64,000 nucleotides of DNA from a bacterium. GTDB taxonomy: Bacteria > Patescibacteriota > Minisyncoccia > Phycocordibacterales > UBA1006. The position numbers and the translations under genes are program-made. The stretch lies in assembly GCA_030433255.1 (NCBI GenBank), contig JAUIMI010000001.1, positions 23,378 to 87,377 of the forward strand, in the 5' to 3' direction. Shown piece after piece: positions 1 to 12,522 of the stretch; the stretch's first letter is position 1; every line of letters begins with the position of its first letter. The notes under the pieces were generated by a model that worked only from the letters and a program-made list of their open reading frames with translations, was not told the DNA's origin and ran no database searches.

Positions 1-41
1 CTTGTTTGGGATTTTAGTAATTATCTCTATAATAGAATTAT

Positions 42-236
42 ATGAATACAGAACTAAAACGACCATCATGGGATGAATATTTTATTGAAATCATGTATAT
101 GGTTGGGAAACGTGGAACCTGCGATCGTGGTCAGGTTGGATCAGTTATCACCCGTGATAATCGTATATTGGCAACAGGGTATGCTGGAGCTCCATCAGGC
201 ATTGCACATTGTGATGATGTCGGGCATGAAATGCAT
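42..236 (+). pseudogene. dCMP deaminase (ComEB-like) 5' fragment, interrupted after ~64 codons; the ORF runs on to 335 through element-derived sequence
   Basis: N-terminal RPSWDEYF...GTCDRGQVGSVI..ILATGYAGAP.G.AHCDDVGHEM matches the dCMP/cytidine deaminase N-terminus. Similarity stops after HEM at ~233 and the zinc motifs HAE/PCxxC are missing from this ORF. Confidence 0.6.
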
Positions 237-303
237 ATGGTTACGCATGACGGTGGAAGTACATCCAAATCTTTGATGAAGTTCGACAATATTATATCAA
301 ATG

Positions 304-329
304 AAAACCCTTCAAAAGAAGGGTTTTTT
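304..329. terminator. Hairpin AAAACCC-n10-GGGTTTTTT, bidirectional terminator-like
   Basis: Perfect 7-bp GC-containing stem with flanking A/T runs at the end of the minus-strand lipoprotein gene. Confidence 0.45.
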
Positions 330-344
330 AATTAAAATTTTAGA

Positions 345-1469
345 CTACTTATACCAAGTATCAGTACCAGGAACTGAAATTGGCCATCCAGAACCAAATG
401 GTCGCACACTAGGAACTACATTATCAATATCTACCACTAACACTCCACTTACATAGAAATCATCATTAAAAACTGACCACGTGTTATACACATTTGCAGG
501 CCATCTTTGACCTCGTTGAAAAACTACCTGAGCATTATCTTGATCTGCATTACCTTCATCAGTAACAATATAATTTTTATACTGCTTGAATGATTTAATT
601 TCGGCAGCATCAGCACAGCCAATGGTAAAAGTTTTAATATGATTAGGGTCAGTATCCCTGGTATCTAAGTACGCTCTAGGTAAACTAGATGCAGCATAGT
701 GGACATTTGGGACTCCATTAATATATTCACTATCATCTAGATATGTTCCTGGACCAAGGCTAGAATTTGAAGAATTATTCAAATTAAAATCAGGTTCAAA
801 CGTTACATTATCAGACCACTCACCAAATGGATCATTTGTAATCCAAATCATAGCTGTTAGTAGGTAACGTTTGCCAGGATAAGAAGTAGACTCTTTAATA
901 CGATAACCATAAGCATCTGGAATCCATGAATCAGAAGATCCATTTCTTTGAGAAAAATTATTTGATTCTCTTCTTACATCTGGAATACTCTGTTTCTCTG
1001 AACGAATCACCTTGGATGATGAAAAAATCTCATTTACCTTGTTCTCATCAAGAGAAACATTTGTAATCATCATTTCCGATATATTATAAAGTTCTTGACT
1101 TCGAGAAACTGAACCGCTTGATTTTGATACATATTTTCCTATTTGTATCTCAGGCTCACTTTCTAAACCACTAATGCCCTTGTTAATTGTCTCATTAAAG
1201 GTAATTTGATTAGAATTTTCTGTTAACGGAACAAAGCCACGAAATGGTGTTCCTCCTAGTGAAAAATTATGTGTCACAACAATCGAGGATTTACTAATAC
1301 CCAATTGATTTATTTGTGACTCTAATTCCGAATAAGAAATAGGTTTTTCAAATAAAACTTGAAAATTAGATTCAGTATCAACTGCTGATTGCTCTTGCGA
1401 GAGGTCTTCATCTTTTGAACAAGAAGTTATCATTGCTGAAATTGCAATGATCATAAGAAATTTTTTCAT
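345..1469 (-). CDS. Hypothetical lipoprotein (signal peptide + lipobox ITSC)
   Basis: The N-terminus MKKFLMIIAISAMITSCSKDE is typical of a lipoprotein signal. No recognisable catalytic motif. Lies within the inserted element. Confidence 0.5.
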   Translation of the reverse strand: MKKFLMIIAISAMITSCSKDEDLSQEQSAVDTESNFQVLFEKPISYSELESQINQLGISKSSIVVTHNFSLGGTPFRGFVPLTENSNQITFNETINKGISGLESEPEIQIGKYVSKSSGSVSRSQELYNISEMMITNVSLDENKVNEIFSSSKVIRSEKQSIPDVRRESNNFSQRNGSSDSWIPDAYGYRIKESTSYPGKRYLLTAMIWITNDPFGEWSDNVTFEPDFNLNNSSNSSLGPGTYLDDSEYINGVPNVHYAASSLPRAYLDTRDTDPNHIKTFTIGCADAAEIKSFKQYKNYIVTDEGNADQDNAQVVFQRGQRWPANVYNTWSVFNDDFYVSGVLVVDIDNVVPSVRPFGSGWPISVPGTDTWYK

Positions 1470-1549
1470 AAAAAAGTATTTAATTGTTTATAGAACAAAA
1501 TTGTTCGAAGTAAGATTAACTTATTTCTTTAAAAATGTAAAATAATAAC

Positions 1550-2005
1550 ATGAAAATTTTACGAACTTATTTAAAGAAAATTATCATCTCTTTAATTGTA
1601 TATATAATACTAAGATATATTCTCCTTAATATAATAGGATATAGCCATCTTATTAACTCTGATTATCTAACACTTATATTAATTTTTATTAGTCCGCTTT
1701 TACATATATTTTCATATCTATTTCTTATAAAAAAGATATTCAAAAAAGACATATTATCTAATATAATTCTATATCTATTTAACAATAACATTTACTTCTT
1801 ATATTCATATCTTTCATATCATCTCATTTATGAGTCTTTTTACGTATATCAGCCATTTTTTACAGGCAACCCTCCTGAAGATTTTATACTAGTTGATGCT
1901 TTTAGTAGTGTTCATTTTATGAGTAAGATGAGTTTTATATTATTTATTACAAGTTTTTTTCTTCTTATATTATTTATTACTATAAGAAGAAAATATTTTA
2001 AATAG
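1550..2005 (+). CDS. Hypothetical small membrane protein (very hydrophobic, I/L/F/Y-rich)
   Basis: ORF in an extremely AT-rich stretch with several predicted TM helices. It could be spurious. Confidence 0.3.
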   Translation: MKILRTYLKKIIISLIVYIILRYILLNIIGYSHLINSDYLTLILIFISPLLHIFSYLFLIKKIFKKDILSNIILYLFNNNIYFLYSYLSYHLIYESFYVYQPFFTGNPPEDFILVDAFSSVHFMSKMSFILFITSFFLLILFITIRRKYFK

Positions 2006-2516
2006 CATTAATTGTATTCAAAATATCTTGGATCTTTTTTGAATACAACTCCCCAACCTTCACTCTATAAAACTTAATACCAACTGAATTCAAAATATCA
2101 TCCTTAATCTTGTCATACTTTCCTTGTTTTTCTGTATCATGTGATTTTCCGTCAAGCTCAATAACTGCAAGGATATTTCCATAATGATTATCTAAAATTA
2201 CAAAATCAAGATGTTTTGATTTAATATAATTTCTTTTAATACCTTTCTCTTTCCAATCAAGTGATTTCTTTGCACTAACGATATCTTCCAATCTTACTTT
2301 TGAAAGAATCGTATATTGATTATTATTTTGTTTCACTAATTCATTGAAAAAAGTTTTCTCTGATTGAGTAAAGAAATATTTTTTAAGGGTGAAATATGGA
2401 CCAATATTATCTATTGGTTTTTTATCTATTTCAGAGTTATTTTCTGAAGATTTTAATTTCTGAATAACGATGTATGCAATGAATACAAGAGCAACAAGAA
2501 TAAATAGTGATTTCAT
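1998..2516 (-). CDS. DUF2726-like (restriction-endonuclease-fold/NERD-like) domain protein with N-terminal TM helix
   Basis: Pattern HLDFVILD...ILAVIELDGKSH...KDDILNSVGIKFYRV resembles the DUF2726 signature (DFVI.D..xxAIELDxxxH...D..L...GI...R). Confidence 0.4.
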   Translation of the reverse strand: MKSLFILVALVFIAYIVIQKLKSSENNSEIDKKPIDNIGPYFTLKKYFFTQSEKTFFNELVKQNNNQYTILSKVRLEDIVSAKKSLDWKEKGIKRNYIKSKHLDFVILDNHYGNILAVIELDGKSHDTEKQGKYDKIKDDILNSVGIKFYRVKVGELYSKKIQDILNTINAI

Positions 2517-2744
2517 AATATAACTGGATTATTTGATAAATGAACCCAGCACAAAACTCCCCACAGAGAGTTCTGAGCAAAGCTCACATATCCGTTTCCA
2601 GATACGACCAGACGAAAGCGAAAAGTGAACCCCTATGAGGAGTTTTCTACTTTCGTCTGGAATTTTTACACCATACCTCTTTCAAGGGTTAGGTTTATCA
2701 ATTTCGTATTTAATTACCTATATTTTAATATATAATTTTTATAT

Positions 2745-3584
2745 ATGGAAATAACTCCTGAAAATAAACAAATACTTAAAGTCATTAATGCACTTATTGA
2801 AAAACGACATAACTCTAAATACATCAATGAATGCCCATTTTCTGTTGTAACTCTTAAGCACCTAGAATTAATAGATCTTGATTGTTTTGAAGCATCACGA
2901 CTTTTTAATGATTTAAAAAATTACGAAGCTATTGAATTAACCAATGAAGAAGAATTTAAGAAAGTGGTCGAAATGATCGGTGAAGAAATAATGATAAAAG
3001 TTGATGAGAAGATTAAAAAAGGAAAAAGCTCATATAAACAAGTACAAAAGAATCTTGAAAATATGATGAAATATGTAGGAATTGAACCTACTAAAGAAGA
3101 ACTTAAAAAAGATATCACCCTAAAGGAATTAGAATCTTTTAAAAAACGAGTAACAAATACCATTGATGAGGAACTTCTGAAATCAAAAGAAATTGGTATT
3201 TATAAGATCAAGAAAGATCTCCATAAGATGCGAAGATATATCTTAGGTGGGCGTGATTTCTATAATATGGATAAAGAGTTTTTAAGTTTAGATGTAGAAA
3301 CTCAAATTATTGATTTAAACGGTAGACTTATTTCAATTAAACAAAATCCTCCCCTGAAAGGACAATATCTCCTTGAATACATTTTAAAAAATGATGCAAA
3401 GAAAAAATATCCTCTTGATGAACTTGTAGAAGATAATGTTATTCCAGACGGAAACAAAAGGACATATATTGATGCTGTGATCAATTTAAATAAACGAGTT
3501 AAAAAAGAAACTCACGGAGACATCAATGACTTACTTAAAAAATCAGGAGATTATTATTTCATCAAAGATCAATATACTATGTAG
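2745..3584 (+). CDS. Hypothetical protein (element cargo)
   Basis: Clean 279-aa ORF, K/E-rich, no recognised motif. Followed by hairpin AACTCGCAG-n15-CTGCGAGTT at ~3637-3670. Confidence 0.45.
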   Translation: MEITPENKQILKVINALIEKRHNSKYINECPFSVVTLKHLELIDLDCFEASRLFNDLKNYEAIELTNEEEFKKVVEMIGEEIMIKVDEKIKKGKSSYKQVQKNLENMMKYVGIEPTKEELKKDITLKELESFKKRVTNTIDEELLKSKEIGIYKIKKDLHKMRRYILGGRDFYNMDKEFLSLDVETQIIDLNGRLISIKQNPPLKGQYLLEYILKNDAKKKYPLDELVEDNVIPDGNKRTYIDAVINLNKRVKKETHGDINDLLKKSGDYYFIKDQYTM

Positions 3585-3964
3585 TTGAGTAAAATACTCA
3601 ACTAAGCTCAACAAGTGAAATGAAAAAATAAAACTCGCAGGGACGCCTCTGGCTGCTGCGAGTTTTATCATGCACAATTACTCACAACAACTCATGAAAA
3701 AATATCAAGACTACATGAAAACAACTCATGGGATTTTTGTTGATGATGATACGGCTCAAATATACCTCGAAAGTTTCGCCACCGTCTTCCTTGCATTACG
3801 AAAACTAATCACAGACGAATAGACTTTTCTTTCGTGGTACTTGTAAATCAAAACTATGAATATCGTCAATGAGCGAAGCGAAATTGATGATGTGAATAGT
3901 TTTGATACAAGTACATGCACAGAAGAAAGTCTATGTGATTACTTTTATTAATCTAATATTATTT

Positions 3965-3995
3965 GTTGCCGTAGTATAGTATTACCTACGGCAAC
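3965..3995 (+). other. Putative rolling-circle origin stem-loop: GTTGCCGTAG-[TATAGTATTAC]-CTACGGCAAC, loop containing nonanucleotide TAGTATTAC
   Basis: Perfect 10-bp inverted repeat with an 11-nt loop. The loop contains the exact circovirus/nanovirus nonanucleotide (nick site), 21 bp upstream of the rep start codon. Confidence 0.7.
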
Positions 3996-4016
3996 TTCTG
4001 GTAACACAAAAACTAT

Positions 4017-4940
4017 ATGACCAATAAAACATCACGAAATTACATATTTACCGTGAACAATTATACGCACAGAATGTTGAAAAAATTTAAACAAATAGCC
4101 AAGTCTTTAGACAAGCATAAATATATTTGCTTTGGACTTGAAGTAGCCCCTGAAACTGGAAACAAACATATTCAGGGATACATTCAATTAAAAGATAGGA
4201 AGAAATTTACCTTCCTTCATGATTATTTTGATCTCCACAAAAAAGGAAAGCAGGATAAATTCCATATTGAATATGCCAATGGCAGTGTTAAGCAAAATCA
4301 ACAATACACCTCTAAAACAAGAGATGAGGACGAAGTACCTAATAAGGTATGGCTTGAATACGGAACACCTACAAAACAAGGTAAACGAACAGATCTTACA
4401 GACCTGAAAGAAAAATTACGAAAAGATCCAAAATCTTTGAGAGAACTTATGAAAGAAGATGTAGTAAGTACACAACAAATGAGATTTGTTGAGGGAATGC
4501 AAAAATATATGTTCTCACACAGAGACCCTAAAAAACCACCAAAGGTGTTTTGGATTTATGGATCAACAGGAAAAGGAAAAACAAAATTAATTTACGACTC
4601 ATTTGAAAGTGTTTGTCCGGTATCAGATTTTAAATGGCCTGGAAATTTCTACTTTCAAGAAGAGTGCCTGTTATTTGATGACTTTCGAGCAGGAGATATT
4701 CCATTCCATACCCTACTTAAGATAGTTGATAGGTATCCTTATACCTTAGCTGTAAAAGGAAGTTTTGTACCACTTAATTCTCCATTCATTGTTATTACTA
4801 GTCCGAAATCAATCAGAAAAACTTTTAACGAATTTCATGAAGACTTAAAACAACTTGAACGAAGAATTAAGGCTGAGATTAATATTGATGCTGAAGAAAT
4901 TGAAAACCTTAAAGAATACATAGGACTAGAAGATTTCTAG
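4017..4940 (+). CDS. rep: Rolling-circle replication initiator Rep, CRESS-DNA/circovirus-like (HUH endonuclease + SF3 helicase)
   Basis: Motif I FTVNNY, motif II KHIQGY (HxQ), motif III YTSK, GTPTKQGKRTDLTDL (cf. circoviral G.P..QGKRSDL), Walker A GSTGKGKT, Walker B LLFDDF, motif C ITSP. Confidence 0.85.
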   Translation: MTNKTSRNYIFTVNNYTHRMLKKFKQIAKSLDKHKYICFGLEVAPETGNKHIQGYIQLKDRKKFTFLHDYFDLHKKGKQDKFHIEYANGSVKQNQQYTSKTRDEDEVPNKVWLEYGTPTKQGKRTDLTDLKEKLRKDPKSLRELMKEDVVSTQQMRFVEGMQKYMFSHRDPKKPPKVFWIYGSTGKGKTKLIYDSFESVCPVSDFKWPGNFYFQEECLLFDDFRAGDIPFHTLLKIVDRYPYTLAVKGSFVPLNSPFIVITSPKSIRKTFNEFHEDLKQLERRIKAEINIDAEEIENLKEYIGLEDF

Positions 4941-4966
4941 TTTTTTATTCACTATTATTAATTTTA

Positions 4967-6574
4967 TTGTATAGTCAAAATATGAAGTATATAATCTACG
5001 CACGTAAATCAACCGATGACTCAGGGAAACAACAATTATCTCTTGAATCTCAAATTACTGAAATGCGTGGACTCGCAAAAATGAATCATCTTGAAATAGT
5101 AAAAGAATTTCAAGAATCACAATCAGCAAAAACTGCAGGACGACCAATCTTTGCAGAAATGTTGCAATACATTCAGGATGGACATGCTGATGCTATTTTA
5201 TGTTGGAAATTAGATAGATTATCACGTAACCCTATTGATACCGGAACTATAACCAGTTTGTTACAAAATAACATCATCAAAGAAATCAAAACCTACCAAA
5301 AGACTTACTACCCTGGTGATAATGCTATTGTAATGGCAGTTGAGCTTGCTATGGCTAATCAATACTCACGTGATCTTTCTACAAATGTAAAACGTGGACT
5401 ACGTACGAAACTCAAAAATGGAGATTGGCCATGGGTTGCACCAATTGGGTACTTAAATGACACAATTAACAAAAGTATTGTGATTGATCCAAAATCATCA
5501 AAATATATCAAGAAGGCTTTTGAGATGTATGCAACTGGGAACTATTCGTATAAAGATATTGAAAAGATTCTCTATGAAAAAGGATTCCGAAGTAAATCAG
5601 GTAAAAAAGTAAGCCATGCCCTTCTCCATCATTCACTAACTAATACTTTCTATTATGGAATTATGGAGCGCCAAGGAGAATATTTTAAAGGAAAGCATAA
5701 ACCAATCATTTCAAAGAAATTATTTGATGAATGTGAAAAGATCCGACTAGGTCATAACAAACCACGACGCAAGAAGCATGTATTCCCCCTGCGAGGTCTT
5801 TTAACTTGTGAGGTATGTGGTTGCCTCATTACTGCTGAGAAACAACGAGGAATTGATTACTATCACTGTACCAATGGAAAAGGTATTTGTGACCAAAAGA
5901 AAAAATTTGTTAGAGGAGAAGAATTAGAAAAACAAATCTTCAATGCCGTGGAAGATGTATGTTTCGATGAAGATATGATTGAAATTATCCATGAAGCAGC
6001 CTTAGAAAAATTCTACTCAGAAAATAAGAATAGAAATGATCATAAGGAAGAGTTAGAGCAGGAGTTACATTTACTTAAATTAAAAGAAGACAAATTATTA
6101 GATTCTATGTTAGATGGAAAAGTTGATAATGATATCTATGAAAAGAAATCAAAATCACTGAAACTAGAACGTCTTGATTTAGAACAAAGAATCGCTCGAA
6201 ATAGTGTAAATATTAAAAAAGAGCTATCTACTTTCGAACAAGCTAAAAATGCTCTAAAAACCTTATATACCTTCAAGATAGCCTATTCTGATGCTGAACC
6301 CATCAAAAAACGTGAGATTTCTTTTGAGTTACTTTCGAATATGACTCTAAAAGACCGAAAAGTCCTTACTGTACAACACAAAAGCCCCTATTCACTACTC
6401 GTAAATAAGGGTAAAAACGTTAGTTTTTCTGAAATGCTCACAACACTGTATTCGAACAACACATGCAGAACAAAATGCTATTGTTTCTGCAGCACGACAT
6501 GGCGTAGCTGTCGAAGGTGGAACATTGTATTGCAAAATGACACCATGTTATACCTGCGCAAAACTTATTATTAA
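4967..6574 (+). CDS. Large serine recombinase (resolvase/invertase catalytic domain + recombinase domain + zinc ribbon); the last ~45 codons are read from host DNA across the right junction
   Basis: Catalytic Ser motif IYARKSTDDSGKQQLSLESQ; Zn ribbon CEVCGC...YYHCTNGKGIC; C-terminal coiled-coil region. The ORF tail overlaps the dCMP deaminase 3' fragment in another frame. Confidence 0.85.
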   Translation: MYSQNMKYIIYARKSTDDSGKQQLSLESQITEMRGLAKMNHLEIVKEFQESQSAKTAGRPIFAEMLQYIQDGHADAILCWKLDRLSRNPIDTGTITSLLQNNIIKEIKTYQKTYYPGDNAIVMAVELAMANQYSRDLSTNVKRGLRTKLKNGDWPWVAPIGYLNDTINKSIVIDPKSSKYIKKAFEMYATGNYSYKDIEKILYEKGFRSKSGKKVSHALLHHSLTNTFYYGIMERQGEYFKGKHKPIISKKLFDECEKIRLGHNKPRRKKHVFPLRGLLTCEVCGCLITAEKQRGIDYYHCTNGKGICDQKKKFVRGEELEKQIFNAVEDVCFDEDMIEIIHEAALEKFYSENKNRNDHKEELEQELHLLKLKEDKLLDSMLDGKVDNDIYEKKSKSLKLERLDLEQRIARNSVNIKKELSTFEQAKNALKTLYTFKIAYSDAEPIKKREISFELLSNMTLKDRKVLTVQHKSPYSLLVNKGKNVSFSEMLTTLYSNNTCRTKCYCFCSTTWRSCRRWNIVLQNDTMLYLRKTYY

Positions 6575-6704
6575 CGCAGGGATAAGGCGAGTGGTAGCAG
6601 CAAAAGATTATCATGCCGGGGCACGTAGTAAAGAAATTTTTACCGAAGCAGGTATCGCATACGAATTACTTGATTCAAATATTGAATCATATGATAACCA
6701 ATAA
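6423..6704 (+). pseudogene. dCMP deaminase 3' fragment (zinc-binding HAEQNAI and PCYTCAKLIINAGIRRV motifs); no start codon of its own
   Basis: Translating codon phase 0 from 6423 gives VFLKCSQHCIRTTHAEQNAIVSAARHGVAVEGGTLYCKMTPCYTCAKLIINAGIRRVVAAKDYH...*. Together with 42..233 this makes a full-length (~150 aa) ComEB-like deaminase. Confidence 0.65.
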
Positions 6705-6709
6705 TATTT

Positions 6710-7039
6710 ATGATTGATTTACAACAATTACAAAAAGAAACCTATCAAAATAAATTAGACAAAGGTTTCAATACAACTGATATTGCTTTGGAGTTTTGTC
6801 GTGCCCACGAAGAATTATCAGAAGCATTTAAAAAATACAACCAAGATGAAGACGGAGTAGGTGAAGAGTTGGCTGATGTAGCTATTTTTCTATTAGGTAT
6901 TTCTGAAATTATGGGGTTTGATTTAGAAACAGAATTAGTAAATAAAATGGAAAAAAACAAAAAACGAAAATACACCACACACATCAATAAAGATGGAAAA
7001 AAAGTATTCATGCGCGTAGCAACAGAAGAAGATAAATAA
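6710..7039 (+). CDS. MazG-like nucleoside triphosphate pyrophosphohydrolase (small all-alpha NTP-PPase)
   Basis: EExxE...EELADVAIFLL metal-binding motif arrangement of MazG/HisE-type NTP-PPases. Confidence 0.6.
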   Translation: MIDLQQLQKETYQNKLDKGFNTTDIALEFCRAHEELSEAFKKYNQDEDGVGEELADVAIFLLGISEIMGFDLETELVNKMEKNKKRKYTTHINKDGKKVFMRVATEEDK

Positions 7040-7064
7040 AAAACCAGCAATTACTGGTTTTTTA
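7039..7064 (+). terminator. Rho-independent terminator AAAACCAG-caatta-CTGGTTTTTT
   Basis: Stem plus T-run immediately after the stop. Confidence 0.6.
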
Positions 7065-7117
7065 TTTTATTTATGATTAAATTAATAAAAAGAAGTTTAA
7101 TTAAAAAAGAATAAAAT

Positions 7118-7453
7118 ATGCCGTTTATTAGAATTATTTCTCAAGATAAATTATCTGATCTAAATAGAAAATTATCTATTAAAAAATTAATAAAAAGAAT
7201 AAAATACTATACTTCACAGGAATTAAAGGTAAATACTTTTTCTGTTGAAGTTACTGAAGCTGGTTTATATGACGAACTCGCAAGTGAGATTGAAATTCGA
7301 ATCACAGCAGATCAAAATCCTATAAGAAATCCTCGAGTGGATATGTATGCTTCAAATATTGAAAAAGATTTAAGTTCTCATACTGAGTATAGAACTAAAT
7401 GTAGAGTTTTTCTTTTTTTAGAAAGAATTGGTTTTGATCAAGAGAAAGGGTAA
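7118..7453 (+). CDS. Hypothetical small protein
   Basis: 111-aa ORF followed by a strong terminator. No recognised motif (begins MPF..., a tautomerase-like start is speculation). Confidence 0.35.
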   Translation: MPFIRIISQDKLSDLNRKLSIKKLIKRIKYYTSQELKVNTFSVEVTEAGLYDELASEIEIRITADQNPIRNPRVDMYASNIEKDLSSHTEYRTKCRVFLFLERIGFDQEKG

Positions 7454-7458
7454 TTATA

Positions 7459-7494
7459 AGAGCCAATTTTGCAAAACAAAATTGGCTCTTTTTA
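7459..7494 (+). terminator. Rho-independent terminator AAGAGCCAATTTTG-caaaac-AAAATTGGCTCTTTTT
   Basis: Perfect 14-bp inverted repeat followed by a T-run. Confidence 0.65.
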
Positions 7495-7553
7495 AATCTC
7501 AAAAAATAAATTTAACAAGTCTTTTTGTCGTTATGATTTGGTATACTAAAAAC

Positions 7554-8765
7554 ATGAAAGATACAAAGATAAAAAATCTACTCGCGGCAGAAAAAAAACG
7601 TCAAAAAAAAGTGGTTAATTTGATTGCATCAGAGAACTATGTATCTGATGATGTGCTCAAGGCTCTTGGTTCAGAAACGACAAACAAATATGCGGAAGGA
7701 TATCCAGGAAAACGATACTATGCAGGAAATGTTATTGTAGACCAAATTGAAACCTTGGCGCAGGAACGTGCATTAACATTATTTAAACTTAATCCTAAAA
7801 AATGGGGGGTTAACGTACAACCACTTTCAGGTTCACCAGCAAATATTGCTGTGTACCAAGCGTTAATAACACCAGGTGCAAAAATTATGGGAATGGATTT
7901 AGCTCAAGGAGGACACCTTACTCATGGACACAATGTGTCATTTTCTGGAAAATTCTGGAAACAAGTCCCATATACCTTGGACAAGAAAACAGAAAAATTA
8001 GACTATGATGCACTGCTTACATTAGCTAAAAAAGAAAAACCAGCCATTATTGTCGCAGGGTACACCGCTTATTCACGAAAAATTAGCTGGAAAAAAATGC
8101 GCGAAATTGCAGACACCGTTGGTGCATATTTATTGGTTGATATGTCACATATTGCAGGGTTAGTTGCAGGTGGAGAACATCCAGCACCATTCAAATATGC
8201 GCACGTTGTTACCACAACAACCCACAAAACATTACGTGGTCCACGTGGAGGAATGATTTTTGCACCAAAAGATGTTTTTATAGAACGAACCTTAAAAAAT
8301 GGAACGCTAAAAAAAGAAAGTATTTTTGATCTCATTCAAAAATCAGTTTTTCCTGGTATGCAAGGCGGACCACACATTAACCAAATTGCAGGAATTGCTG
8401 TGGCACTAAAGGAAGCAAACACGGCATCATTTAAAAAATATGCTGGGCAGGTGGTAAAGAATACTAAAACTTTAGCAAATGAATTAAAAAAACTTGGTTG
8501 GAGAATTATTTCTGGTGGAACTGATAATCATGTATTTTTAATGGATGTATGGAATGATGGGAAAGGTCTTACAGGAAAAGAAGCTTCAGATATATTAGAA
8601 GCTGCCGGAATTATTGTAAATATGAATACGATTCCATATGACGCGCGGTCCCCATTTAATCCTTCTGGTATCCGTATTGGTTGTGCAGCTGAAACAACGC
8701 GTGGTAAAAAAGAAAAAGATATGCTACAACTTGCTCGCCAAATTGATAAAATTTTGCGAAAATAG
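7554..8765 (+). CDS. glyA: Serine hydroxymethyltransferase
   Basis: YAEGYPGKRYYAGN and the PLP-lysine region VVTTTTHKTLRGPRGG. The start is taken at MKDTKIKNLL (7554), not the upstream ORF start 7428, which lies inside the terminator. Confidence 0.9.
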   Translation: MKDTKIKNLLAAEKKRQKKVVNLIASENYVSDDVLKALGSETTNKYAEGYPGKRYYAGNVIVDQIETLAQERALTLFKLNPKKWGVNVQPLSGSPANIAVYQALITPGAKIMGMDLAQGGHLTHGHNVSFSGKFWKQVPYTLDKKTEKLDYDALLTLAKKEKPAIIVAGYTAYSRKISWKKMREIADTVGAYLLVDMSHIAGLVAGGEHPAPFKYAHVVTTTTHKTLRGPRGGMIFAPKDVFIERTLKNGTLKKESIFDLIQKSVFPGMQGGPHINQIAGIAVALKEANTASFKKYAGQVVKNTKTLANELKKLGWRIISGGTDNHVFLMDVWNDGKGLTGKEASDILEAAGIIVNMNTIPYDARSPFNPSGIRIGCAAETTRGKKEKDMLQLARQIDKILRK

Positions 8766-8769
8766 AATT

Positions 8770-9876
<1,107 letters not shown>

Positions 9877-9896
9877 GGTTTTTTGGTAGATGTTTT

Positions 9897-10748
9897 TTAT
9901 ACTGATATTGGTGCAGAAATTTTATCATGAGGATTGTATCTTTCAAGAGTAAAATCATCAAACGTAAAATCATCAATATTTGTGATATCAGGATTAATTT
10001 TCATTATAGGCATTTCTCTGATATCATTTTCCCGTGATAATTGAAGCTCAACCTGATCAAAGTGATTATTGTAAATATGCATATCTCCAAAAGTATGAAT
10101 GAATTCACCTGGCTGGTAACCGCATACTTGGGCCATCATCATGGTGAACAGTGCATATGATGCAATGTTAAAAGGTACTCCTAAAAATGTGTCAGCGCTT
10201 CGTTGGTATAGTTGGCATGATAGTTTTCCATCAGCTACATAAAACTGAAAGAATGCATGGCAGGGAGGAAGTGCTGCTTTACCATTTGCTACATTTTCAC
10301 TAAAACTTTTTGAAGTATCAGGCATAACACTAGGGTTCCATGCAGAAACTAACATTCTTCGTGAATTTGGATTATTTTTTAAGGTATCAATAACTTCTTT
10401 TAATTGATCGATATCATCATCATTCCAATTACGCCATTGTTTCCCATACACAGGCCCCAGGTTTCCATGTTCATCAGCCCATTCATTCCAGATACGGACA
10501 TTATTTTCTTTTAAGTAATTAATATTCGTATCTCCTTTTATAAACCATAATAGTTCGTAAATAATAGATTTTAGATGAACTTTTTTACCTGAGATTAATG
10601 GAAAACCTTTTGATAAATCAAAACGCATTTGATATCCAAAAATACTTTTTGTTCCTGTCCCTGTCCGGTCACCTTTTTGATGTCCATTTTCAACAATATA
10701 TCTCAATGCGTTATTATAGATAACATCTACATTTTTTAAATCTTTCAT
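9897..10748 (-). CDS. thyA: Thymidylate synthase
   Basis: [19 protein letters not shown], folate-binding region, active-site region [12 protein letters not shown]. Confidence 0.92.
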
Positions 10749-10805
10749 AATTATTTTAGTTTTAAGGTTTATTTTTAATAATAAAATTTAAAAAATAAAA
10801 GTCAA

Positions 10806-11207
10806 TTATTTCTCAATTTTACAATGATTAAAATTGGCAACATATTGTTGAGCATTTACATCTTTTACAAATTTTCCATCGATTAATGTTCCAGTTCGAG
10901 AGTTAATTTCTCGAAACCCTTCATCCATTACACAGCTCGGATCATATCCTAATTTTGCCATTGCTCCTGTTGAGAAGATAATAATATCAAACAGCGCATC
11001 AATAATCTTATCAGCATCTTCTGTGCTATCTTTAGTAATTTCAGAAGCGAGTTGTTCAGCACGTTCTCGAGCACTTATGCTGTCATAGTTTCCAGTGCTT
11101 TCTAATAACTCTTCAAGAATAAATGAAACTTCTTTTTGGTGATTGAATCCCTTTTCAATAAGTCCACGTTCATTATTCCATGCAACAATTTTTTCAAACA
11201 TATTCAT
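10806..11207 (-). CDS. Hypothetical protein, possibly MazG/dimeric-dUTPase-like all-alpha NTP pyrophosphatase
   Basis: ILEELLEST and DALFDIIIF acidic motifs reminiscent of the MazG family. Weak. Confidence 0.3.
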   Translation of the reverse strand: MNMFEKIVAWNNERGLIEKGFNHQKEVSFILEELLESTGNYDSISARERAEQLASEITKDSTEDADKIIDALFDIIIFSTGAMAKLGYDPSCVMDEGFREINSRTGTLIDGKFVKDVNAQQYVANFNHCKIEK

Positions 11208-11269
11208 ATTTTAATTATATCAAATTTGATATAATTATGTTATATTTAAAAAAACTTAAATTATAAATT

Positions 11270-11965
11270 ATGTCAAATTATAAAAATGGAAAACTCATAG
11301 TTATTGATGGTACAGATGGTTCAGGAAAAGCAACCCAAGTACGAGCAACAAAAGAACGTTTTGAAAAAGAAGGTTTTTTAGTAGAAACGCTCGATTTTCC
11401 GCGTTACTATGATAATTTTTTTGGAAAAGAAATTGGAAATGCTCTTGCTGGTAAATATGGAGATTGGGCAGGAACCCATCCTAAAATAGCATCTGTGTTA
11501 TATGCCGCTGATAGATTTGAATCATCACAGCAAATTAGAACATGGATTGAAGAAGGAAAAATTGTCATTCTTGATAGGTATGTTTCTTCAAACCAAATCC
11601 ACCAAGGTGGAAAAATCGATGATGAGCATGAGCGAAAAAATTTCCTAGGATGGCTTGATACTATGGAGCACGAAATTTTTGGTATTCCACGACCAGACCT
11701 TATTTTATATCTCAATGTTCCTTTAAAAATAACCCAAGAATTATTAATTCAAAAGGGGAATAAGGAATCAAAAAAATACCTTGAAGGACGCGGTGATCAA
11801 CATGAAGATAATATTGAACATTTAGAAGCAGCAAAAGAATCTGGGCTTAAAATGATTGCCGAAACAAATAATTGGCATAAAATTGAATGTACAGAAAATA
11901 ATCAACTCCAATCAGTCGAAGAGATTAACAATAAAATTTATGCAAAAATAAAAGAGCTTCTTTAG
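11270..11965 (+). CDS. tmk: Thymidylate (dTMP) kinase
   Basis: P-loop LIVIDGTDGSGKATQ and the DRY motif region. Confidence 0.85.
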   Translation: MSNYKNGKLIVIDGTDGSGKATQVRATKERFEKEGFLVETLDFPRYYDNFFGKEIGNALAGKYGDWAGTHPKIASVLYAADRFESSQQIRTWIEEGKIVILDRYVSSNQIHQGGKIDDEHERKNFLGWLDTMEHEIFGIPRPDLILYLNVPLKITQELLIQKGNKESKKYLEGRGDQHEDNIEHLEAAKESGLKMIAETNNWHKIECTENNQLQSVEEINNKIYAKIKELL

Positions 11966-11988
11966 GCTCTTTTTGTTATACTAAAATT

Positions 11989-12522
11989 ATGAAGAACATA
12001 ATTTTAGCCATTGTCATAATTTTTATTTTAGGTATTGGATGGTACCTAATATCACCGGTGTTTATTGATAATACCGTTAATGAATCAATTCCTATTCAAG
12101 ACATATCTGTTGAGTATAATGATTCTGATACCGTAGATATTACCAGCGATATTATTATTGGAAATGATATTGTTATGAATGAACCTATGATGGAAATGGA
12201 ACCAACAACCAGCGTAGAAACACGTGGTTCATTTGTTGATGCTGATAATTTCCATAAAGGATCAGGAGAAGTAAAAATAATCAAAGATGGAGAACAAACA
12301 TTTCTTCGTTTTGAAAATTTTTCAGTTACCAATGGTCCAGATTTATTTGTGACTTTAAATAAAGGAGATTCTCCAAAAGATGACTATATTATTGTTGAAC
12401 CTCTCAAGGGAAATAAGGGAGATCAAAATTATGATATTTCAAAATACAATATTAATGACTATCAATCAGTCTCAATCTACTGTAAAGCATTTTCGGTAGA
12501 ATTTGCTACAGCACAATTATAA
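11989..12522 (+). CDS. DM13-domain protein with N-terminal TM anchor
   Basis: GSGEVKII.DGEQTFLRFENFSVTNGPDLFVTL...LKGNKGDQNYDI matches the DM13 domain signature (F.NF.v.nGPDL.V.L). Confidence 0.5.
   Translation: MKNIILAIVIIFILGIGWYLISPVFIDNTVNESIPIQDISVEYNDSDTVDITSDIIIGNDIVMNEPMMEMEPTTSVETRGSFVDADNFHKGSGEVKIIKDGEQTFLRFENFSVTNGPDLFVTLNKGDSPKDDYIIVEPLKGNKGDQNYDISKYNINDYQSVSIYCKAFSVEFATAQL

Follow-up and report, generated by a model that had tools for sequence, protein, structure and literature searches.

The 64,000-nt stretch of contig JAUIMI010000001.1 analyzed here (hereafter the window, with positions counted from its first letter) carries an integrated element of 6,174 bp (266-6439, one copy of the TC core counted), which interrupts a dCMP deaminase gene of its patescibacterial host. 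The conserved core of this element and of its relatives consists of a small open reading frame (ORF), a long hairpin capped by GCGAAGC, a shorter stem-loop that we call the origin hairpin, the replication initiator gene rep and the gene of a large serine recombinase, and it is accompanied by variable cargo on the minus strand. In this work, we show that the origin hairpin, which bears the nonanucleotide of circovirus and nanovirus origins, is conserved and covaries throughout a family of such elements, and we argue that it is probably the nick site of a plasmid-like replicon.

Structure of the Origin Hairpin

The predicted double-strand origin (3965-3995, + strand) is a perfect 10-bp stem with an 11-nt loop, made up of the 5' arm GTTGCCGTAG (3965-3974), the loop TATAGTATTAC (3975-3985) and the 3' arm CTACGGCAAC (3986-3995). 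The nonanucleotide TAGTATTAC (3977-3985, + strand) occupies the last 9 nt of the loop, flush with the 3' arm and 31 nt before rep, and a spacer of exactly 21 nt (3996-4016) separates the hairpin from the rep ATG at 4017. An initial annotation of the window had placed the nonanucleotide in the loop of a perfect 10-bp stem 21 nt 5' of rep, and the sequence and coordinates that it gave match exactly. The Rep nick is predicted between T3983 and A3984 of the + strand, a position taken from viral Reps (PMC7826260). Folded as DNA in a 41-nt context, the hairpin is the centroid structure, with a free energy of -10.4 kcal/mol (z = -6.9) that none of 200 shuffles equaled.

Taken separately, neither the nonanucleotide nor the stem is significant. 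The window contains one copy of TAGTATTAC against 0.61 expected, and at least one copy appeared in 43 of 100 shuffles; perfect hairpins of at least 10 bp number 34. A related count, limited to loops of 8-14 nt, gave 54 hairpins against about 0.8 in mononucleotide shuffles. The joint event, that is, a nonanucleotide flush against a 10-bp stem with a loop of 10-12 nt, has a chance per window that we estimate roughly at 5e-6 from composition, and at no more than 1e-3 once the observed surplus of hairpins is taken into account. The origin hairpin also differs in kind from the others in the window, with a stem of 60% GC, an 11-nt loop and no T-run, and it is situated directly 5' of the sole Viral_Rep gene among the tested ORFs (window 1-12,000 screened). 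Nearly all the other hairpins are built as A-tract, stem, loop of 3-6 nt, stem and T-tract, and could terminate transcription in both directions.

Conservation in Related Elements

A profile built from the Rep alignment retrieved 11 related loci from a collection with one genome per species, in which a single Rep used as query had matched none. Metagenome contigs contributed 61 related loci, about 29 of them belonging to the close family, and further loci were obtained by exact-protein look-ups. In the close family (Reps 44-84% identical), 38 loci include sequence upstream of rep. The initial annotation had named the persistence of stem-loop and nonanucleotide in homologous elements as the check on its reading, and both turned out to be kept. 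A hairpin with (T/C)AGTATTAC is present 5' of rep in 37 of the 38 loci, the exception being L098, whose rep is truncated. The loops of these hairpins measure 10-12 nt and have the nonamer on their 3' side, and the distance to rep is 12-58 nt. The octamer AGTATTAC is unaltered in 27 of 30 distinct family hairpins, and three loci have single-base variants of the nonamer (TAGTAATAC, TAGTATTGC and CAGTGTTAC).

The stems, by contrast with the loop, exist in at least six versions according to subgroup (GTTGCCGTAG, GTTGCCATAG, GGTTGCCTA, GGGTCGGGG, GGGTCGAGG, ATGTCGTG and GAAGTCGGGG), and they covary. In the structural register, 237 of 240 cells are Watson-Crick paired. When 14 distinct hairpins are considered, 94.6% of the cells are paired and both sides have been altered in seven of the eight stem pairs. 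Their covariation score of 0.918 was reached by none of 500 shuffles (0.285 ± 0.051), and in a control in which the partners were slid by 1-3 columns pairing dropped to 34-52%. Across the family the loop sequence is nearly invariant and the stem changes freely but stays paired, as would be expected of a nick site that is recognized by its sequence and displayed by a structure. This comparative conservation is the decisive evidence for the hairpin over chance.

The same result was obtained with a blind scan of 43 related loci, on both strands, for loops ending in TATTAC on stems of at least 6 bp. Each of the 35 scoring loci had one match, always on the rep strand and just 5' of rep, while the seven loci without a match had a variant nonamer, a stem mismatch, missing upstream sequence or a truncated rep. 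The sole extra match in the whole set is at window position 1957.

This second hairpin (1957-1993, + strand, TTTTCTTCTTATA-TTATTTATTAC-TATAAGAAGAAAA) has a 13-bp all-AT stem and an 11-nt loop ending in TATTAC, and lies between the convergent cargo genes 1550-2005 and 1998-2516, in a terminator-like position. Its octamer starts with TT instead of AG and it has an equivalent in no relative. It could be a chance terminator, or a pseudo or secondary nick site.

Iterons flanking the stem had also been proposed as a check in the initial annotation; iteron-like repeats occur in much of the family and are only faintly visible in the window. Just 3' of the hairpin, direct repeats of at least 5 nt within 12 nt were found in 21 of 33 distinct flanks, where shuffles predict 4.9. 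Some are tandem, namely two copies of TGGGAC in L074 and L100, of GGACA in L072, and of GGGAA(A/G)T in L073, L075, L092 and L094. Several loci from the candidate phyla radiation (CPR) have GGACA…GGACA or AGACA…AGACA with a distance of 8 nt. The window has a weak iteron-like pair (3990-4005, + strand) formed by GGTAAC (4000-4005) and, in the outer half of the 3' arm, GGCAAC (3990-3995); with one mismatch and a distance of 10 nt, that is, one helical turn, it is suggestive but weak.

The Rep Protein

The rep gene (4017-4940, + strand) encodes a protein of 307 aa with an HUH endonuclease domain and a superfamily 3 (SF3) helicase domain (Pfam Viral_Rep, 4e-12; RNA_helicase, 3e-5). Its motifs are FTVNN at residues 11-15, HIQ at 51-53, Y97xxK100, GSTGKGKT at 182-189, DD at 221-222 and RR at 282-283. 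The best solved relative is the full-length Rep of porcine circovirus 2 (PCV2; 7lar, E 2e-18), to which both domains align. Motifs I-III, Walker A and B and the arginine pair are invariant in an alignment of 35 Rep sequences, which includes H51 and Q53 of the HUQ motif II, Y97 and K100 of motif III, G187 and K188 of Walker A, D221 and D222 of Walker B, and R282 and R283. In addition, KFHIEYANG of our Rep aligns with RCHIEKAKG, the motif by which PCV2 Rep bridges single-stranded DNA (PMC7826260).

Compared with its two closest orthologues (79-83% amino acid identity), rep has a ratio of nonsynonymous to synonymous substitution rates (dN/dS) of 0.09, at a dS above 1 that is near saturation, which indicates purifying selection. 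The initial annotation had held that this Rep is functional with a cognate origin rather than a decayed relic. The low dN/dS, the invariant motifs and the conserved, covarying hairpin support that view, and Rep would be expected, from these sequence features, to nick at the hairpin nonamer.

Outside the close family, Rep is nearer to the Reps of circular genomes than to those of known plasmids. In IMG/VR, which lacks the close family, the best matches to Rep are 33-34% identical over the full length (E 1e-38). These distant relatives are closed circles of 2-4 kb, 60 of 88 with NANTATTAC hairpins, and 39 of those 60 with TAGTATTAC. A library of 1.8 billion representatives has about five 50%-identity clusters better than E 1e-50, followed by a continuum of 112 matches at or below 1e-30 and 5,786 at or below 1e-10, at 33-41% identity. 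The sole match among the plasmids of PLSDB is RepA of p4M from Bifidobacterium, a pCRESS3 member, with 30% identity over 66% of the query (E 6e-8). Judged by sequence, no described plasmid Rep is closer to ours than the viral Reps are.

Integration Site and Serine Recombinase

Insertion has split the host dCMP deaminase gene into a 5' part (42-265, + strand, MNTELKRPSWDEYF...HCDDVGHEMHMVTHDGGSTS), which ends with the attL TC at 264-265, and a 3' part (6438-6704, + strand, ...SQHCIRTTHAEQNAI...PCYTCA...YDNQ and stop), which begins with the attR TC at 6438-6439. The empty site is found in a sister genome, L133, in which window segments 2-265 (97.7% identical to L133 3961-4224) and 6438-7041 (97.4% identical to L133 4223-4826) are contiguous, with the 2-nt overlap TC (L133 4223-4224). 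There the deaminase gene is intact (L133 4001-4489); its product, P0128, is 96% identical. The window and L133 have the neighborhood in common, composed of genes for dihydrofolate reductase, dCMP deaminase, a MazG-like protein, serine hydroxymethyltransferase (SHMT) and thymidylate synthase. Since the junctions abut in L133 with a 2-nt overlap, the element extends exactly from 266 to 6439. The three sites, attB (...GCACATC/ACAACAC), attL (...ACATC/CAAATC) and attR (...ATGCTC/ACAACAC), have only TC in common, and the insertion is therefore conservative at a TC dinucleotide, as is usual for large serine recombinases. Nucleotide similarity to the related elements of L014 and L001 ends exactly at 6439. 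Two independent assemblies, L012 and L013, are 100% identical to the window and have the same arrangement.

The interrupted deaminase gene belongs to a thymidylate-synthesis cluster and would be whole again after excision, so the element might control the supply of dTTP as a switch, or it could simply knock the deaminase out. A further difference between the window and L133 is a segment of about 432 bp between the MazG-like gene and that of SHMT (window 7042-7473), which is absent from L133, contains an ORF of 111 aa (7118-7453) and is bordered by perfect 14-bp hairpins (7034-7067 and 7458-7490); the flanking L133 matches overlap by 8 nt. It may be a small independent insertion.

The recombinase gene (4982-6574, + strand) follows rep directly in all 13 loci that are long enough to show both. 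Its product matches Resolvase (PF00239, 4e-24), Recombinase (PF07508, 1e-15) and Zn_ribbon_recom (PF13408, 2e-7) of Pfam, all above the cut-offs, and an integrase of PHROGs (1e-84), while the nearest NCBIfam models are CcrA/B/C and XisF. With a dN/dS of 0.08, it too is constrained. The part encoded by the element ends at 6439 and, in the integrated state, the ORF crosses attR and continues for 45 codons in host sequence, to 6574. In the reconstructed circle it closes 13 codons past the crossover, at TGA 302-304, for a product of 498 aa, and a terminator-like hairpin predicted from the sequence (304-327, + strand, AAAACCCTTC-AAAA-GAAGGGTTTT followed by Ts) would come after this stop codon.

The attP junction predicted for the excised circle is …CTGAAATGCTC/CAAATCTTTG…. 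A possible counterpart occurs in L014, a metagenome contig of 6.5 kb with no recognizable host gene, where the sequence past the crossover (L014 4263-4330) resembles window 260-330 at the left end of the element, with GAAGTTCGA at the same offset and about 65% of 40 nt matching. This likeness is only suggestive of an excised, attP-like form, the contig not being closed.

Most relatives are placed beside a tRNA gene, which runs opposite to the recombinase gene and overlaps its 3' end (L001 5571-5642, L002 8394-8480, L004 8431-8501, L005 8413-8483, L006 5110-5180, L008 8405-8475, L009 8369-8439, L072 7397-7467 and others). L004, L005 and L072 have repeats of the tRNA end (13-18 nt) at a distance of about 6 kb upstream, which gives elements of about 6 kb there too. 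The targeting of tRNA genes with repeats of 13-18 nt is unusual for large serine recombinases. A group I intron (7448-7731) lies near the tRNA gene of L083.

A Candidate Single-Strand Origin

The small ORF and the origin hairpin are separated by a long imperfect hairpin (about 3840-3911, + strand) with the apex GCGAAGC at 3873-3879. Its DNA fold has a free energy of -23.7 kcal/mol (z -5.4). In six distinct loci of the window's subgroup, 10 of the 27 predicted pairs show compensatory double changes and the apex GC-GAA-GC is invariant. The 12-mer GAGCGAAGCGAA occurs once, against 0.09 expected. The G·T wobbles of the long hairpin fit the + strand only, which is the strand of the nonamer and, for that reason, the strand that rolling-circle replication would displace.

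GCGNAGC is a mini-hairpin DNA motif at the primase start sites in the complementary-strand origins of phages G4, St-1 and α3, and a related motif is part of ssiA of RSF1010 (PMC13037366). By analogy, the long hairpin is a candidate single-strand origin (sso) for complementary-strand synthesis. A role at the RNA level is compatible with the same structure.

Other Genes of the Element

Besides the genes described above, the element has two ORFs upstream of rep that recur in its relatives. The small conserved ORF (3670-3822, + strand, 50 aa) is found in most related loci that include the upstream region, with tblastn matches in L001, L014, L002, L004, L006, L008 and L009 and a dN/dS of 0.42. Its pattern LIxEYQxEMxxxYGVxVxxxxAQxQLxSL extends from the window to CPR elements with Reps less than 50% identical, and it matches no family. 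In CPR loci (e.g. L008 5769-5987), a reading frame of this type continues through the origin hairpin. As guesses, its product might be a recombination directionality (excision) factor, or a regulator, including one of copy number. The other is an ORF of 279 aa (2745-3584, + strand) whose position is conserved: in most elements the small ORF has one of about 285 aa ahead of it. It is 37-38% identical to its counterparts in L001 and L014, and one positional equivalent in a CPR element has a weak match to Trans_reg_C (OmpR-type winged helix); its product is possibly DNA-binding. An AlphaFold2 model of it is mainly helical and unusable (pLDDT 37, two-sequence alignment).

The remaining ORFs are cargo: a predicted lipoprotein of 374 aa (345-1469, - strand, MKKFLMIIAISAMITSC...), called from its signal and lipobox, which has no match in Pfam, PHROGs or PADLOC and no tblastn match in the other loci; a hydrophobic ORF of 151 aa (1550-2005, + strand), probably a membrane protein if real, without a family match; and an endonuclease-like DUF2726 protein (1998-2516, - strand; PF10881, 8e-25), with a homologue at L004 3968-4504. 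For the element's ORFs of no known function, Pfam, PHROGs, NCBIfam and PADLOC returned nothing informative. In the same libraries, the cargo of related elements matched nothing beyond DUF2726, a HEPN-like family and an OmpR-type winged helix, the last two weakly, and several of its proteins have no informative match.

The element also encodes a LOOT RNA (Rfam RF03000; 2574-2695, - strand), with a full-length match of 63.9 bits (gathering threshold 46.4; E 1e-10). With ARAGORN and Rfam, the 64-kb window yielded LOOT as its only RNA family, and no tRNA gene. Seven elements with the Rep-recombinase pair carry LOOT above the gathering threshold (51-82 bits), 0.6-1.6 kb 5' of rep and in either orientation; in the relatives it lies at L009 4297-4413 (+), L014 336-451 (-), L073 1773-1887 (-), L083 4293-4408 (-), L087 269-382 (-) and L091 1027-1143 (+). 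The LOOT RNA of the window is 82% identical to that of L014, while the neighboring ORF is only 37% identical (at the protein level). The Rep-recombinase elements may be the genomic home of LOOT.

Replication Model and Alternatives

Our data are best explained if the origin hairpin is the nick site of an integrative, plasmid-like replicon of 6.2 kb that multiplies by rolling circle, a reading that we consider probable. We infer the following cycle from the sequence. The recombinase would excise the element by exchange at the 2-bp TC, restoring the deaminase gene and forming a circle of 6,174 bp, in which the recombinase ORF would close after 13 more codons, ahead of the element's own terminator. 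Rep would bind to the 3' arm as well as to the neighboring repeats, with extrusion of the hairpin. Tyr97 of motif III would then cut TAGTATT/AC at 3983/3984 and stay on the 5' end, a host polymerase would extend the 3'-OH, and the SF3 helicase domain would unwind the duplex. After one round, Rep would cut again and rejoin at the regenerated nonamer, releasing a circular + strand, and this would be made double-stranded from the GCGAAGC-capped hairpin 60-130 nt upstream, the candidate sso. The recombinase could re-integrate the circle.

Several observations weigh against this cycle or some of its steps. No exact 5-mer repeat is present in the flank of the window's hairpin, so that one imperfect repeat makes up the whole iteron signal there, and a simple promoter and terminator scan of 3550-4100 gave no match. 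Helicase motif C reads T-S-P in 31 of the 35 family sequences, with the P aligned to the N of PCV2, although every CRESS-virus Rep is said to have an Asn in this motif (PMC6668415 supplement), and helicase activity is for this reason assumed rather than certain. CPR-type relatives carry different hairpins at the position of the sso, where a search for perfect stems gave patchy results, and the sso itself is assigned by analogy. As an excision factor there is only a candidate, the 50-aa ORF, chosen by position. Finally, the attP junction and the window-type and CPR-type hairpins are all without a match in IMG/VR, and none of the approximately 40 close-family loci is a closed circular contig with terminal overlaps.

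A different view of the same anatomy would be that the element is a temperate ssDNA virus or a satellite, with a capsid that is unrecognized (the ORF of about 285 aa, for example) or supplied by a helper. Rep is indeed nearer to circular CRESS-virus genomes (33-34% over the full length, and 33-41% for many representatives) than to known plasmid Reps, the circular relatives carry the same nonamer hairpin, several ORFs of the element have no known function, and a small element of about 6 kb with an integrase and its own replication module resembles phage satellites. Nevertheless, no capsid or virion family was matched in Pfam, PHROGs or PADLOC by the proteins of the element and of four related elements, nothing resembled a portal or a terminase, and the ORF of about 285 aa, mainly helical in a low-confidence model and with one weak winged-helix equivalent, does not suggest a jelly roll. 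The remaining genes vary between elements, and the family is absent from IMG/VR. We regard a viral or satellite nature as unlikely. It is very improbable that Rep acts like a relaxase or a transposase, with the hairpin as an origin of transfer (oriT) or a transposition end of a mobilizable element or an IS91/Helitron-like unit. Conjugative transfer and transposition are indeed among the processes driven by HUH enzymes (PMC7826260), and integrative mobilizable elements are described as encoding their own excision and integration as well as mobilization functions (PMC5357655, PMC5704250). In our element, however, the ends are set by the recombinase crossover, at distances of 3.7 kb and 2.5 kb from the hairpin, and there is a single hairpin per element instead of two ends. 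The combination of Rep nuclease and SF3 helicase is that of replication initiators, with PCV2 Rep as the best solved relative, and library scans of the element proteins found no Mob relaxase, coupling protein or mating-pore gene.

The position of the hairpin, 21 nt before the start codon, means that it may be transcribed, and a weak match to the ssNA-helicase family of Rfam (24 bits) points in the same direction; the hairpin might then act mainly as a 5' leader or as an operator of rep, with an inherited but unused likeness to a nick site. By binding beside its hairpin, circovirus Rep represses the promoter of its own gene, so that regulation and nicking can coexist. As the main function, though, regulation has hardly any probability in our judgment, for the loop octamer is nearly invariant across Reps 44-84% identical while the stem is free to change, which is the pattern of a cleavage site and not of a structural leader, and the catalytic Tyr and the HUQ site of Rep, unneeded in a pure repressor, are invariant and under purifying selection. 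At the other extreme, the structure could be a chance hairpin or an ordinary terminator of an AT-rich genome, or the whole locus a viral fragment mis-assembled into a bacterial contig. The nonamer is expected 0.61 times per window and perfect hairpins of at least 10 bp are common, but those others have A/T-tracts and short loops, and neither accident would leave covarying hairpins in 37 loci, the same arrangement in L012 and L013, which were assembled independently, or precise junctions against an empty site. We give these explanations negligible probability: conservation, covariation, the empty-site junctions and the blind scan refute them for practical purposes.

Hosts and Significance

The labeled relatives come from metagenome-assembled genomes (MAGs) assigned to Paceibacterota, Nomurabacteria, Kaiserbacteria, Saccharibacteria and Minisyncoccia, with one labeled Crocinitomicaceae. 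By these labels, the hosts of the approximately forty related elements are mostly CPR bacteria (Patescibacteria). The Crocinitomicaceae MAG (Bacteroidota) is the source of L001, the closest relative from the genome collection, and the deaminase homologue P0134, among the closest dCMP deaminases, bears the same label, while every other labeled relative is patescibacterial. The family may extend across phyla, or else these contigs were assigned to the wrong bin.

The novelty of this system lies in its context and not in the motif: a compact lineage combines a viral-type origin, a probable sso and the LOOT RNA. Bacterial elements with CRESS-like Reps have been proposed as ancestors of the eukaryotic CRESS-DNA viruses, from comparisons of proteins only (PMC6668415). 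The present family shares with circoviruses and nanoviruses both the Rep architecture and the cis-acting origin, that is, the nonamer, its geometry and the position of the repeats, and thereby ties the type of origin known from eukaryotic viruses closely to bacterial mobile DNA. It offers a concrete system for studying how the viral pair of origin and Rep arose and how rolling-circle replication is coupled to integration by a serine recombinase; furthermore, LOOT may gain a genomic home and a new type of single-strand origin is suggested. The practical value is modest, comprising a candidate for HUH-tags and studies of Rep specificity and a small replicon-integrase cassette for bacteria that are hard to manipulate.

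A more far-reaching interpretation, which we consider unlikely, is that these elements are temperate ssDNA viruses or satellites of Patescibacteria whose capsid has gone unrecognized, or else that, among living bacterial lineages, they are the closest sister group to the replication module of circoviruses and nanoviruses. If a sister group, the viral origin with its nonamer hairpin, iterons and HUQ Rep would have been assembled in CPR elements before its capture by eukaryotic viruses, and some of the environmental CRESS diversity called "host-less" could belong to bacteria.

Comparison with Known Systems

Viral origins of this type have stems of 9-11 bp, loops of 10-13 nt and the cleavage site TAGTATT/AC (PMC7826260), and the stem and loop of the window fall within these ranges. 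The initial annotation had called the loop nonanucleotide identical to that of circoviruses and nanoviruses, which is correct for the nanovirus faba bean necrotic yellows virus (FBNYV, TAGTATT/AC), while PCV2 (AAGTATT/AC) shares the last eight bases (PMC7826260). The (T/A)AGTATTAC origins of these viruses have further features in common with ours, such as a nonamer placed toward the 3' arm, a hairpin directly 5' of rep, the repeats 3' of the stem seen in our family, the two-domain Rep and the HUQ motif II. The placement of the hairpin directly 5' of rep mirrors the CRESS origin, as also proposed initially; the context does not, being a chromosomally integrated element instead of a virus genome. 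The element differs from circoviruses and nanoviruses in being 6.2 kb of integrated dsDNA and not a circular ssDNA genome of 1.7-3 kb, in having a recombinase gene after rep, no capsid gene that we could find and a motif C without Asn, and in a Rep only about 33-41% identical to those of its nearest circular-genome relatives. By the criteria tested, with no circular ssDNA genome, no capsid and no motif C Asn, it is not a virus of the Cressdnaviricota.

The ssNA-helicase motif of Rfam (RF03070), published as a candidate RNA, also consists of a hairpin with the loop UAGUAUUAC, followed by two tandem UGUAGCA repeats. Its stem and repeats differ from ours, the window scores 24.0 bits (E 0.57) against a gathering threshold of 41.5, and no match at that threshold was obtained in 31 related loci. 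RF03070 and LOOT reportedly both come from the set of Weinberg et al. 2017. The main text of that paper (PMC5737381) does not name RF03070, and we found in it no description of the genomic context of LOOT.

Among integrative elements, those of the pSAM2 type of actinomycetes (operon repSA-xis-int) likewise excise and then replicate by rolling circle with their own HUH Rep, and have replication and recombination genes in one operon-like block. They differ in their tyrosine integrase, in a Rep of another family that has no SF3 helicase, in carrying transfer genes and in lacking a viral-type nonanucleotide hairpin. With SPbeta, the skin element and the Ccr recombinases of SCCmec, the present element shares the succession of Resolvase, Recombinase and zinc-ribbon domains and the insertion in a coding gene with a 2-bp crossover and no extended duplication. 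Those elements, however, measure tens of kb and replicate passively or as phages, whereas ours has 6 kb and a CRESS-type Rep and origin, and most of its relatives target tRNA genes.

The closest likeness in overall organization is to the pCRESS integrated plasmids, for which nine Rep clusters, pCRESS1-9, were described by Kazlauskas, Varsani, Koonin, Krupovic 2019 (PMC6668415). These have a CRESS-like nuclease-helicase Rep, integrate site-specifically, range from a few to about 20 kb and lack virion genes, and pCRESS3 has the HUQ motif II, as in circo-, nano- and smacoviruses (PMC6668415). Neither the word "nonanucleotide" nor TAGTATTAC occurs in the text and supplements of that work that were examined. 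The described members use tyrosine integrases and att sites with direct repeats, whereas our element uses a serine recombinase with a 2-bp core; their hosts are Firmicutes, Actinobacteria, Tenericutes and Proteobacteria (PMC6668415), whereas our MAG labels are overwhelmingly patescibacterial. Our Rep also appears to be distant from the published clusters, with p4M of pCRESS3 as the sole link (30% over two thirds of the query). No earlier description of a family combining this Rep with a serine recombinase was found in the searchable literature, which does not cover subscription-only papers. The element family is best read as an apparently undescribed, serine-recombinase lineage of the pCRESS kind.

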